Shown here one piece after another: positions 32,216 to 57,758 of a DNA stretch of 64,000 nucleotides. The stretch covers positions 1,075 to 65,074 of the forward strand of contig CABMHR010000004.1 in assembly GCA_902386025.1 (NCBI GenBank), read 5' to 3'. Within the stretch, counting starts at the first letter, position 1. The number at the start of each line of letters is the position of its first letter. The notes beneath the pieces are model-generated. The model was given only the letters and a program-made list of their open reading frames with translations, searched no databases and was not told the DNA's origin. This stretch comes from an uncultured archaeon. Lineage in GTDB: Archaea > Nanobdellota > Nanobdellia > Pacearchaeales > GW2011-AR1. The translations under genes were made by a program, and so were the position numbers.

Positions 32216-32953
32216 ATGGGAATTGATAAAATTGAAAAAATTTCCACTGGGAGCTATGATTTGAATACTTGGCTCTATGGGGGATATGAAAAAGGGATTA
32301 TTACTATGATTGCAGGCCCGCCTGGCTCTGGAAAAACAAATATGGCAATTCTGGCTGCATGCAGCCAAGCAAAAAAAGGGAATAAAATAATTTTTGTTGA
32401 TACAGAAGGAGGTTTTTCTTCTGACAGAGTAAAACAAATTGTTGGAGAAGGATTTGAAGACATTTTAAAGAATATATTTTTGATAGAACCTATGAATTTT
32501 CTTGAACAGAAGAAATTTTTTCTTACCTTGAACTCTCAACTGAAAAAAGAGCAAATCAGCTTGATTGTTGTAGACGGAATGGCGATGCTTTACAGGCTTG
32601 AGCTTGGAGATGCAAGAAAAGGAGGAGATGATGAAATCAGGGAAATTAACAGGGAAGTTGCAAGACAGATGAAACTTCTTGCAGAAATTTCCAAAAAGCA
32701 AAATATTCCAATAATTATTACAAATCAGGTTTATCAGGGATTCCAGTCTGAAGAGGACTGGAAAAAAGGACTTGAAAGAGAAATGAATATTGTGGGAGGA
32801 GACTTATTCCAATACTGGAGCAAATGTATCATACAGCTGAGAAATGAAAAAGGCAGAAGAAGAGCAATACTTCTCAAACACAGAAGCCTTCCACAAAGAG
32901 AGATTAGCTTTGAAATAAAAAATGACGGGATTTTCAGAAGAAGAATCTTTTGA
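32216..32953 (+). CDS. radB: RadB recombinase paralog
   Basis: RecA-fold with Walker A GPPGSGKTN and Walker B LIVVDG. No N-terminal HhH domain, 245 aa. Confidence 0.8.
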   Translation: MGIDKIEKISTGSYDLNTWLYGGYEKGIITMIAGPPGSGKTNMAILAACSQAKKGNKIIFVDTEGGFSSDRVKQIVGEGFEDILKNIFLIEPMNFLEQKKFFLTLNSQLKKEQISLIVVDGMAMLYRLELGDARKGGDDEIREINREVARQMKLLAEISKKQNIPIIITNQVYQGFQSEEDWKKGLEREMNIVGGDLFQYWSKCIIQLRNEKGRRRAILLKHRSLPQREISFEIKNDGIFRRRIF

Positions 32954-33002
32954 TAAAAATAAAATAAAAAATAAAATTTAGGTATTAATTAAGGCAAACA
33001 CC

Positions 33003-33032
33003 TTACTTTTTTTTCTTTTTTTTCTTAGCCAT
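33003..33032 (-). CDS. micro-ORF MAKKKKKKK (9 codons), copy A
   Basis: Own TATA (33077-33084), SD AAGGAGGG (33041-33048) 9 nt from the ATG, and a TAA stop followed by a short hairpin. Coding status is unproven. Confidence 0.35.
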   Translation of the reverse strand: MAKKKKKKK

Positions 33033-33200
33033 ATTTAATACCCTCCTTAATTAATAAAGAAAATAATTCATTTAAGTATTTAAATTTTCTCTTTTTGGAA
33101 CAGATAAAATGAAAATAGAAAAAGGATTGTGGGAATTTTTTTAATTCCCATATGTTAAAAATAAAAAATAAAAGTTAGCAAGATTTTAAATTAAAAAATC

Positions 33201-33239
33201 TTACTTTTTCTTTTTTTTCTTTGCCTTCTTTTTAGCCAT
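33201..33239 (-). CDS. micro-ORF MAKKKAKKKKKK (12 codons), copy B
   Basis: Paralogous to copy A. TATA at 33285-33292, SD AAGGAGG at 33050-33056, and TAA followed by an 8-bp hairpin AAGATTTT/AAAATCTT. Confidence 0.35.
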   Translation of the reverse strand: MAKKKAKKKKKK

Positions 33240-33367
33240 TATAAACACACCTCCTTAATTAATATAAAAAATAATTTACTAAAGTATTTAAATTTATTCT
33301 TTTTTTTGAAAAATATTTTTTTTGCAGAAAAAATTGCCGTCGACAAAAAGAAAATTAAAATAAATAA

Positions 33368-34123
33368 TTAAATTAATTTGTAAATTGCAGTAACATATGC
33401 ACTAACTTCTTGATTTGAAGGAGTCATACTTGACATTGTGCTTTTTGCTTTTGCATTTGATTCTGCAACTCCAACTCCTGCATCTGCAGAAGCTGTATAA
33501 ACAGGCCAGGGATTGTAATTAAACTGGTCAAGTGAAACAGAAACTAATCTTCCCAATCTTTTGTTAAATCCCTGAGCAAGTGCTTCTGCTTTCACTTTTG
33601 CATCTGCAGAAGCTGTTTTTATTGCATCTGCTTTTGCATTCTGTTGAAGAGAGGGGGTTAATTCAAAATTAATATAACTTATCCCTGCTCCCGCATTTGT
33701 TCCTGCATCAATTATGTCGCTTATCTTGTCTTTTTGCTGAATAGACAGCTCTATCTTCAATGAAGTTGATGCTCTGTAATCAATTAATCTCTGGCTTTTG
33801 CTGTAATCATATTCGGGATAAATGTTAAAACTTTGAGTTTTTAATTCTTCTTTGGAGAAACCTAATGCTACAATATTATCTGTCAGCTTATCTGTTATTG
33901 CAGAATTTGCATCTTCTGCTTCTTTTGAAGTAGCTCCAGATGTGTCAATGCTGAAATAAACAGTAATCAAATCAGGAGCGACTTTTGATGTTGCCTGTCC
34001 GTTTACATTGAATGTGTTTGACACAGAATTTGATTTGAATACAATTATTCCTATAACTGCAAGTGCAATTACTGTTGCAACAATAATGAGAGTTATCTGA
34101 ACTGATTTATCCAGCTTATGCAT
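33368..34123 (-). CDS. SIMPL/DUF541-domain protein, N-terminally anchored
   Basis: N-terminal TM, then ITVYFSIDTSGATSKEAEDANS... resembling the 26-kDa periplasmic immunogenic protein family. Confidence 0.6.
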   Translation of the reverse strand: MHKLDKSVQITLIIVATVIALAVIGIIVFKSNSVSNTFNVNGQATSKVAPDLITVYFSIDTSGATSKEAEDANSAITDKLTDNIVALGFSKEELKTQSFNIYPEYDYSKSQRLIDYRASTSLKIELSIQQKDKISDIIDAGTNAGAGISYINFELTPSLQQNAKADAIKTASADAKVKAEALAQGFNKRLGRLVSVSLDQFNYNPWPVYTASADAGVGVAESNAKAKSTMSSMTPSNQEVSAYVTAIYKLI

Positions 34124-56950: not shown

Positions 56951-57067
56951 TTACTTGGCTTTTTCTTTTCTCAATTTTCTCTTATGTTTTTCCTTTCTAA
57001 GTCTTTTTCTCTGCCACTTCCATCTCATCTGCTGCTTTTTCTTCCATCTTCTTGAGCTTCTTTTCAT
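56951..57067 (-). CDS. rpl41e: 50S ribosomal protein L41e (38 aa)
   Basis: MKRSSRRWKKKQQMRWKWQRKRLRKEKHKRKLRKEKAK shows the archaeal L41e RRWKKK..MRWKW pattern. ATG 57067 lies 21 nt from TTTTTAAA. Confidence 0.65.
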   Translation of the reverse strand: MKRSSRRWKKKQQMRWKWQRKRLRKEKHKRKLRKEKAK

Positions 57068-57104
57068 ATTTAGAATAGAAAAATTTGGTTTAAAAAGATT
57101 TGGT

Positions 57105-57758
57105 TTACCTTCTTTTCTTAACTCCAATTTTTGAGCAATATTCATTTATCGGACATATTGAGCATTTTGGAGAAATTGGAACGCAGATTTCTTTTCCAAA
57201 CTGCACAAATATTGCGTTAAAATCCTTCCAATATTTTTTTGGAAGTATTTTTCCCAATTCAAGCTCTGTGCTTTCTGGAGTTTTTGTTTTAACCCAGCCG
57301 AGCCTATTTGGAATCCTGTGACAATGCGTGTCTATTGGAAGGACATTTTTTCCGTAAGCAAATGCAAGGACTATGTTTGCTGTCTTTGGGCCAATGCCTT
57401 TTATAGACATTAACTCTTCTCTTGTATCTGGAACCTTTCCATTGTAATCTTTTAGGATTATTTCAGAAACGTGCTTTAATGTTCTTGCTTTCTTTTTATA
57501 ATGTCCAGAAGAAAAAATCAGCTTTTCTAGTTTTTTTACAGGAAGTTTCAGAATTTCTTCTGGGGTGTCTGCAACTTCAAATAATCTTCTTGAAGCAATT
57601 TCTGTATTCTTGTCCTGCGTTCTAAGAGAAAGAAGGCAGGAAATTAATATCTTAAATGCATCTGGATTTTTCCGCATTCTGTTTAATGTTGTTTTATCTG
57701 TGCTTGAATAATGAGATTTGAGAATCTTCATTATTTTAAGAATATTTTTATTAGGCAT
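57105..57758 (-). CDS. nth: endonuclease III (Nth)
   Basis: HhH-GPD (IKGIGPKTANIVL..D) and a 4Fe-4S cluster CVPISPKCSICPINEYC. Confidence 0.9.
   Translation of the reverse strand: MPNKNILKIMKILKSHYSSTDKTTLNRMRKNPDAFKILISCLLSLRTQDKNTEIASRRLFEVADTPEEILKLPVKKLEKLIFSSGHYKKKARTLKHVSEIILKDYNGKVPDTREELMSIKGIGPKTANIVLAFAYGKNVLPIDTHCHRIPNRLGWVKTKTPESTELELGKILPKKYWKDFNAIFVQFGKEICVPISPKCSICPINEYCSKIGVKKRR

Follow-up and report, generated by a model that had tools for sequence, protein, structure and literature searches.

The ribosome is known to contain very small, highly basic proteins with genes of their own: eL41 (eS32; 25 amino acids (aa), Arg/Lys-rich, archaea and eukaryotes) sits in a pocket of the rRNA, and Thx, bS22 and bL37 (24-33 aa) are Arg-rich, carry specific motifs and occur in one or few phyla. 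Clusters of 3-6 basic residues split by Ala, Thr or Pro are found in protamines, H1 tails, the H1-like Hc1, AlgP and the mycobacterial HupB tail, which comprise 30 to >200 residues or are joined to a folded domain. The leader open reading frames (ORFs) hisL, pheL, thrL and trpL have 14-30 codons, are led by a Shine-Dalgarno (SD) sequence, contain runs of one codon and are directly followed by a hairpin and a T-tract. Poly(A) tracks and iterated Lys codons in the coding sequence of long genes stall or slide ribosomes and act there as attenuators (PMC4363877, PMC4552401). Here we describe two tandem micro-genes, unit A and unit B, on the minus strand of a 64,000-nucleotide (nt) stretch of contig CABMHR010000004.1 from an uncultured Pacearchaeales archaeon (the whole stretch is hereafter called the window). 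They encode MAKKKKKKK and MAKKKAKKKKKK, respectively, and belong to an apparently undescribed family of Lys/Ala-peptide genes.

The resemblance to described systems is partial. Being 9 and 12 aa long and made of M, A and K only (7/9 and 9/12 codons are Lys), the two peptides fail the eL41 pattern of ~25 aa with Arg, Lys, Trp and Met; eL41 has a defined Arg/Trp/Met-containing sequence about twice as long and no sequence similarity to the micro-ORFs. A small Arg/Lys/Trp-rich ORF (...MKRSSRRWKKKQQMRWKWQRKRLRKEKHKRKLRKEKAK), L41e-like by its sequence, lies at 56951-57145 on the minus strand, which agrees with the preliminary description of the locus in keeping L41e distinct from the micro-genes, and given this separate ORF the micro-genes do not replace eL41. 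Unlike Thx, bS22 and bL37, members of the oligolysine family are Lys/Ala-only peptides of 8-18 aa, and they occur across many phyla, both bacterial and archaeal. Lys clusters with Ala, Thr or Pro breaks resemble protamines and H1 tails in composition, and some alleles look like one or two H1-tail repeats (in locus L035 of our numbering, MATKKAAKKPAKKAAKKK has clusters of 3-6 Lys parted by Ala, Thr or Pro), but a micro-gene product amounts to a single cluster pair. With the leader peptides the micro-genes share a short SD-led ORF rich in one codon, but they have their own promoter, a neighbour that differs per phylum and no cognate co-directional operon downstream, and no alternative antiterminator was seen; we know of no lysine leader peptide of such kind. 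As in coding poly(A) tracks, AT-rich alleles, both window copies included, hold stretches with 11 A per 12 nt, but the Lys run here is nearly the whole gene and members with high guanine-cytosine (GC) content avoid AAA.

The distribution of the micro-ORF was surveyed by scanning one genome per GTDB species for the pattern GGAGG-N6-11-ATGGC-N1-31-(AAR)4-TAR, which yielded at least 120 stretches and at least 75 distinct alleles of 8-18 aa. Matches fall into two clean groups. Among the matches listed, all in-frame micro-ORFs are 8-18 aa long and read M-A-(A/T)-K3-4-(A, AA, AT, ..)-K4-6-stop, and the out-of-frame ones lie in ordinary long genes, mostly of AT-rich Clostridia, some of them probably encoding ribosomal proteins to judge by the N-terminal sequence. 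Clostridia serve as an internal control because AT-rich genomes are where most chance matches should fall, and every match listed from AT-rich Clostridia is out-of-frame inside a long gene. At the other extreme, a run of ten AAG codons at 70% GC is not due to chance (probability ~1e-21 per site at an A frequency of ~0.15).

In-frame members were found in Rokubacteria/Methylomirabilota (at least about 25 loci, GC 0.65-0.72, e.g. MAKKKKAAKKKKK), Acidobacteria/Terriglobia (MATKKKAAKKKKKK), Beta- and Gammaproteobacteria (MAKKRKAKKAAKKKKK), Verrucomicrobia, Nitrospirota, Brocadiales, Armatimonadetes, Eisenbacteria, Omnitrophota, Brevinema and the Candidate Phyla Radiation (CPR/Patescibacteria), as well as in the cultured actinomycete Dactylosporangium sp. 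NPDC048998 (MAKKSKKDKKKNKKKK). Archaeal carriers are Woesearchaeota, Pacearchaeota, Aenigmatarchaeota, Iainarchaeum, Methanomassiliicoccus and Methanomethylicia. To judge by these matches, the family spans many bacterial and archaeal phyla and is no DPANN curiosity. Two earlier views of the locus give way here: the peptide is not pure poly-Lys, since it starts with a conserved M-A and its Lys run is usually broken inside by Ala/Thr, and ribosome sliding on A-runs is excluded as a conserved point, high-GC members being almost exclusively AAG.

Codon usage and substitutions bear on what is conserved. Among the matches listed, ORF residues outside the search pattern (n = 516) are 62% Lys, 26% Ala and 5% Thr, and the AAG fraction of Lys codons rises over four GC bins from 0.49 (GC <0.35) through 0.62 and 0.65 to 0.94 (GC >0.62); Ala codons vary freely among the alleles listed. 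Since the AAG share follows genome GC with the peptide unchanged, it is the peptide and not the RNA sequence that is conserved. For 47 same-length allele pairs differing by at most 4 nt, which are not independent of one another, differences in the unconstrained part of the ORF number 69, 15 and 0 at codon positions 3, 1 and 2 (62 synonymous, 22 not), a one-sided pattern, and identity is 0.93 in the ORF vs ~0.4-0.5 in the ungapped flanks. No decayed copies (lost start, lost stop or broken frame) were found among the pattern matches listed or in the ORF-unbiased set described below. Start, frame and stop are kept, lengths are multiples of 3, substitutions are biased to position 3 and the SD stands 6-11 nt from the ATG. 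Judged by these comparisons of alleles, the micro-ORF is shown to be under purifying selection at the level of both codon and peptide. The earlier proposal of translated, independently promoted micro-genes is supported by the kept ATG and TAA, the period-3 substitutions and a peptide that stays the same while its codons track GC.

Closer to the window, homologues of the adjacent SIMPL gene are abundant in DPANN archaea (those named are Pacearchaeota and Nanoarchaeia). In contigs with a SIMPL ~70-74% identical, a single unit encoding MAAKKKAKKKKK occupies the corresponding position, with SIMPL on one side and a convergent Nre gene on the other, and two such loci differ in the unit ORF by GCT/GCA and AAG/AAA only. 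A metagenome scan that was unbiased towards the ORF, its pattern being the promoter block plus GGAGG only, gave 17 matches: nine true homologues, recognised by an upstream GTCGACG motif and a downstream GGGAATT..AATTCCC hairpin, and eight unrelated. In all nine homologues an ATG at a spacing of 9-10 nt opens a Lys-rich frame closed by TAA; these frames encode MAAKKKKKKK (three), MAAKKKAKKKKK (five) or MAAKKKAVKKKKK (one). Their ORFs measure 33, 39 or 42 nt and those of the window 30 and 39 nt, so that all differences are multiples of 3, in-frame despite the slippage-prone A-run sequence; the suggestion that relatives would keep ATG, frame and stop and vary by whole codons thus passed its test. 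In more distant SIMPL-syntenic relatives (L005-L015, SIMPL ~55-68% identical), no unit was seen in up to 10 kb read on each side. What follows SIMPL in L012 and L014 are small acidic ORFs, which were discarded as unrelated.

The anatomy of the units was read on the minus strand over 32700-33600, and comprises the following features together with the flanking genes, in the order of minus-strand transcription.

33368-34123, minus strand: SIMPL-domain gene (PF04402)
33338..33344, minus strand: upstream motif GTCGACG within TTGTCGACGR, ~30-57 nt 5' of the unit B promoter block
33283..33307, minus strand: unit B promoter block AAAAAAAGAATAAATTTAAATACT, with TATA box TTTAAATA at 33292..33285
33262..33250, minus strand: TTAATTAAGGAGG of unit B
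33250..33256, minus strand: unit B Shine-Dalgarno AAGGAGG, extended match AAGGAGGTG, 10 nt to the ATG
33201..33239, minus strand: unit B micro-ORF, 12 codons plus TAA, MAKKKAKKKKKK
33178..33204, minus strand: unit B stem-loop GUAAGAUUUU...AAAAUCUUGC, overlapping the stop codon
33156..33173, minus strand: unit B T-rich tract TTTTATTTTTTATTTTT, a T-tract being present in all relatives
33130..33150, minus strand: 8-bp hairpin TGGGAATT-AAAAA-AATTCCCA between the units
33075..33096, minus strand: unit A promoter block AAAAAGAGAAAATTTAAATACT, with TATA box TTTAAATA at 33084..33077
33054..33042, minus strand: TTAATTAAGGAGG of unit A
33041..33048, minus strand: unit A Shine-Dalgarno AAGGAGGG, 9 nt from GGAGG to ATG
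33003..33032, minus strand: unit A micro-ORF, 9 codons plus TAA, MAKKKKKKK
32990..33005, minus strand: unit A short, weak stem-loop TAAGG-tgtttg-CCTTA, overlapping the stop codon
32954..32976, minus strand: unit A T-rich tract, abutting the stop of the convergent radB
32216-32953, plus strand, convergent to the units: Rad51/RadB-type ATPase gene (radB), by profile match

Two paralogous tandem units are thus flanked by the SIMPL gene and radB. They are 73% identical, ungapped, over 95 nt, and follow the same order of TATA box TTTAAATA, TTAATTAAGGAGG, ATG, micro-ORF, TAA, hairpin and T-tract. The element list given earlier (TATA box, SD, ATG, poly-Lys ORF, stop, hairpin) was borne out base for base, and so were the two units, with the spacing corrected from ~207 to 208 nt. 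The unit A ORF reads ATG GCT AAG AAA AAA AAG AAA AAA AAG TAA and that of unit B ATG GCT AAA AAG AAG GCA AAG AAA AAA AAG AAA AAG TAA. In the window, the micro-ORF pattern has two matches vs 0.01 expected, and TTAATTAAGGAGG occurs at these two sites only, vs 0.26 expected. Within the promoter block AAGTATTTAAATT is the same in both units, and the whole block of unit B is identical in L001, L004, L125, L137, L139 and L146-L148. The T-rich tract of unit B is likely an archaeal oligo-T terminator, and that of unit A is likely a terminator as well.

Expression signals of the units were compared with those of the 58 non-overlapping window ORFs of at least 100 aa. Of these, 2/58 are preceded by GGAGG at a distance of up to 20 nt and 6/58 by a TTTAWATA box at up to 70 nt, and the micro-genes have a consensus TATA box together with a 7-9-nt SD match. 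Most of the 58 have an A/T box ~25-30 nt 5' of the ATG, a spacing that indicates putative leaderless transcripts. The view of the micro-genes as leadered, unlike most genes here, holds. Their SDs had also been called the strongest in the window; exceptional they are, but the ORF starting at 2909 has one of comparable strength. In the genome scan, among the matches listed, the extended SD GGAGGTG precedes 40/77 micro-ORFs vs 15/54 long-ORF controls.

The A-runs themselves appear restrained. The share of AAG among Lys codons is 24% in the long genes of the window and 8/16 in the two micro-ORFs (P ~0.02), and the AAG positions in the latter keep every A-run at 8 or below. Runs of 9 A or T occur five times in the 64 kb window (33% GC) and runs of at least 10 are absent, a cap that suggests genome-wide avoidance of slippage-prone tracts. 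Extension of the ORFs by frameshift or slippage was considered and rejected, the other frames after the A-runs being short and different between units A and B.

Hairpins near the stop codon recur with changing sequence. Most alleles fold one at or just after the stop, with stems such as AGUAAAGG/CUUUACUU, GUAAGAUUUU/AAAAUCUUGC, GGUGAG/UUCACU and GGGAUUUUUAU/AAAAAUUUC. Of the hairpins claimed earlier, that of unit B is solid (-10.2 kcal/mol, z = -4.1) and the 8-bp one at 33130-33150 is real as well, but the TAAGG/CCTTA stem of unit A is marginal (z = -1.3). The sequence downstream of unit A, CCTTAATTAATACC, is able to pair with its own 5' untranslated region (UTR); the resulting perfect 12-bp stem closing 5' UTR on 3' UTR was set aside, having no counterpart in the inspected relatives and lying partly 5' of the predicted transcription start. 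No conserved alternative (antiterminator) pairing was found: there is a single hairpin at the stop codon, and the 5'-3' pairings of unit A are absent from relatives.

Two further elements mark the archaeal locus. A GGGAATT-(5-8 nt)-AATTCCC hairpin followed by a T-run occurs in the window (33130-33150) and in L001, L004, L125, L137, L139 and L146-L148; in the relatives it lies between the single unit and the convergent Nre gene, and in the window, which has no Nre, unit A stands beyond it instead. TTGTCGACGR, with the SalI-type palindrome GTCGAC, is invariant in unit B, L001, L004, L125, L137, L139, L146 and L148, surrounded by a variable AT-rich spacer; L147 reads CTCGACG at the position of the motif and unit A is without it. 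The motif may be a binding site for a regulator. Unit A, which lies beyond the hairpin that ends the single-copy arrangement and lacks GTCGACG, is an extra tandem copy specific to this lineage, relatives carrying one unit here.

Gene neighbourhoods are conserved within lineages only, with no neighbour family recurring between phyla and the downstream gene frequently convergent. In Pacearchaeota the order is SIMPL, unit and convergent Nre; in CPR, seryl-tRNA synthetase, unit and a co-directional ORF of ~900 aa that, to judge by its sequence, is probably SecA; in Rokubacteria, a 349-aa protein followed by one to three units; in Acidobacteria, unit and a 669-aa protein. Tandem copies number two in the window, three in L035, two in L046, and two in L085 with one more in L096, a second contig of the same metagenome-assembled genome (MAG), and tandem multiplication has arisen independently and repeatedly. 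Synteny restricted to lineages, a convergent downstream gene and repeated tandem copies together argue for a stand-alone gene rather than a leader peptide. An intrinsic terminator follows 8 nt after the ORF in one acidobacterial locus, and other lineages have hairpins of their own after the ORF.

Several observations concern individual lineages. The conserved rokubacterial co-directional protein of ~350 aa, with the micro-ORF or micro-ORFs 28-150 nt downstream, is seen in L046, L054, L057, L065, L071, L081, L085, L099, L117 and L130; its sole Pfam signal is a borderline one to AbiEi_2 (E = 3.6e-4, 21.3 bits vs a cut-off of 21), a type IV toxin-antitoxin antitoxin-like family. A conserved GC-rich hairpin, GGTGGGGGGTGGCGGCCTCCCACC, lies 10-25 nt past the micro-ORF stop in rokubacterial loci L032, L046, L052, L054, L055, L057, L099, L117 and L130. 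Its 3' arm contains CCTCC, complementary to the SD, and L054 has a canonical terminator further 3'. Locus L047 is labelled as a Nanoarchaeota MAG (JAUYIO010000067.1) and shows a CPR/Patescibacteria context, with seryl-tRNA synthetase upstream and a TTGGTAAG..CTTACCAA hairpin downstream; this contig may be mis-binned.

A scan of viral contigs (IMG/VR) returned a different family, M-A-C-...-G-G-K-K-K-K, which we do not count with the oligolysine family. These viral micro-ORFs, M-A-C-(K/G...)-G-G-K-K-K-K-stop, are SD-led and 9-14 aa long, with a conserved Cys as third residue and, in many cases, Gly-Gly preceding the Lys tail (MACKKGGKKKK, MACGGKKKK, MACKKKCGGKKKK), in genomes of GC 0.28-0.59. 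They were found at L154, L155/L210, L169, L186, L188, L195, L200, L201, L202, L204, L211, L218 and L219.

As for function, we tentatively favour an abundant, gene-encoded, nucleic-acid-binding polycation. Each unit, with its own strong archaeal promoter, strong SD, 9- or 12-codon ORF, stop-proximal hairpin and oligo-T terminator, would give rise to a mini-mRNA of ~80-100 nt translated into a Lys/Ala oligocation. A Met-Ala start favours removal of the initiator Met, and the predicted products after likely loss of Met-1 are AKKKKKKK and AKKKAKKKKKK. Made in large amounts, the peptide would bind and neutralise nucleic acid. Its target could be rRNA or the ribosome, by analogy with eL41, Thx, bL37 and bS22, or DNA, by analogy with protamines and the AKKA/PAKK tails of H1-like proteins. 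The strong promoter and SD, the tandem amplification, the conserved Met-Ala start and the Ala/Thr breaks argue for a product needed in bulk, and a charge of +7 to +12 in 8-17 residues can hardly serve any role beyond polyanion binding. Many carriers among the matches belong to lineages of very small cells, e.g. CPR and DPANN, and Rokubacteria have a cell diameter of 0.3-0.4 µm (PMC5712423); small cells would fit a role in compaction or charge neutralisation.

A number of points weigh against such a polycation. Transcript, translation and a stable peptide are all read from sequence, the ribosomal and nucleoid roles are drawn by analogy, and free peptides of 8-15 residues are usually degraded fast. 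The link with small cells may reflect sampling bias, many MAGs coming from groundwater filtrates. Loci L001, L002, L125 and L142 originate from the Hainich groundwater wells. The unit is patchy among SIMPL-syntenic relatives. The census is incomplete, covering at least 120 stretches and a pattern that demanded GGAGG, ATGGC and a KKKK tail, with MK... starts and longer or SD-less members falling outside it. Lastly, conservation of Lys would also be expected if slow translation of a cationic nascent chain were the functional feature.

This last point belongs to the main rival of the polycation, a sensor of the state of translation, which we consider unlikely though a serious contender: translation itself would be functional, the mini-mRNA, with 7-12 Lys codons behind an excessively strong SD, reporting in trans on the supply of Lys-tRNA(Lys) or on ribosome status (stalling, rescue, stringent response), or parking ribosomes. 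A tiny SD-led ORF in which a single codon is repeated is the hallmark of sensory leader peptides, the extended SD GGAGGTG(A) enriched among the matches listed is of a kind that holds ribosomes, and the Pacearchaeota hairpin contains the stop codon and would be melted by a terminating ribosome. Cationic nascent chains and AAA runs also slow or derail ribosomes (PMC4363877, PMC4552401, PMC9207662). A sensor of this kind has no target in cis, however, with neighbours varying between phyla and often convergent. Sliding on A-runs is not conserved, high-GC members being nearly all AAG, and the A-runs of at most 8 in AT-rich members look like avoidance of slippage. A Lys sensor would need neither the conserved M-A start nor the internal Ala/Thr, and tandem amplification suits a sensor less well than a product whose dosage matters.

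We judge it very improbable that the cationic peptide is toxic or antimicrobial, for instance as a polycation that is secreted, or as the toxic half of a small toxin-antitoxin-like module. Oligolysines are antimicrobial and condense nucleic acids, and the Rokubacteria unit lies directly 3' of the 349-aa protein with the borderline AbiEi_2 match (E = 3.6e-4). However, the peptides have neither a signal peptide nor a hydrophobic segment, no partner gene is conserved between phyla, synteny is chromosomal and stable and not mobile, and what is seen here, namely tandem amplification and a strong promoter and SD that look constitutive, is the reverse of the pattern in toxin genes.

We give just as little credence to a non-coding element, in which the ORF would be incidental to an abundant A/G-rich small RNA or to a homopurine tract acting as a bidirectional terminator or H-DNA. 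The ORFs do appear on the plus strand as T-rich tracts just past radB, (GAA)n tracts can form triplexes, and the coding interpretation draws on comparison of sequences. It is difficult to reconcile this option with period-3 substitutions that spare codon position 2 altogether, with ATG, frame and stop kept in every allele listed, with nucleotides that track genome GC under a constant peptide, or with an SD conserved at 6-11 nt. Searches of the window region against Rfam 15 (E up to 10) gave chance-level matches only, far below gathering scores, and in 18 related loci Rfam recognised only tRNA and a cyclic di-GMP riboswitch, both away from the unit.

Least probable of all, at a level we regard as negligible, is a cis-acting leader peptide or attenuator of an adjacent gene, which in the archaeon would be SIMPL, radB or Nre. 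Although the tiny ORF, single-codon run, hairpin and T-tract mimic his, phe and thr leaders and the Rokubacteria and CPR units closely follow a co-directional gene, the neighbourhoods rule it out as a general explanation: the next gene downstream, radB in the window and Nre in relatives, runs convergently, every unit has its own promoter and terminator with no antiterminator pairing seen, the neighbour is different in every phylum and, to our knowledge, hairpin attenuation is not an established mechanism in archaea.

No description of stand-alone prokaryotic oligolysine genes was found in the full-text literature searched, most subscription journals lying outside it. One small-ORF catalogue has a minimum length of 30 nt and a main text that never mentions lysine (PMC11364881), and another has a minimum of 15 codons (PMC11188072). 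Such genes would have been missed because they fall below the length cut-offs of gene callers, are masked in similarity searches for their low complexity and yield a product that trypsin destroys. The finding also provides a simple regular expression with which a complete census could be made.

If the micro-genes are translated, as comparison of the alleles indicates, annotation has overlooked a class of genes found in many phyla of both prokaryotic domains, and the lower size bound of conserved genes moves to ~9 codons. With 8-18 codons in many phyla, they would be among the shortest conserved protein-coding genes known, and it is conceivable, though we put it forward with more reserve than nucleic-acid binding as such, that they encode an oligolysine bulk polycation, either a counterpart of polyamines and protamines that compacts DNA or RNA in tiny cells or a new universal-type ribosomal micro-component. 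Translation would also raise the question why cells invest strong promoters, SDs and repeated duplications in oligolysine. Possible answers of general interest are a charge-neutralising nucleic-acid peptide in very small cells, a ribosome-bound peptide, or a reporter of Lys-tRNA or ribosome status.

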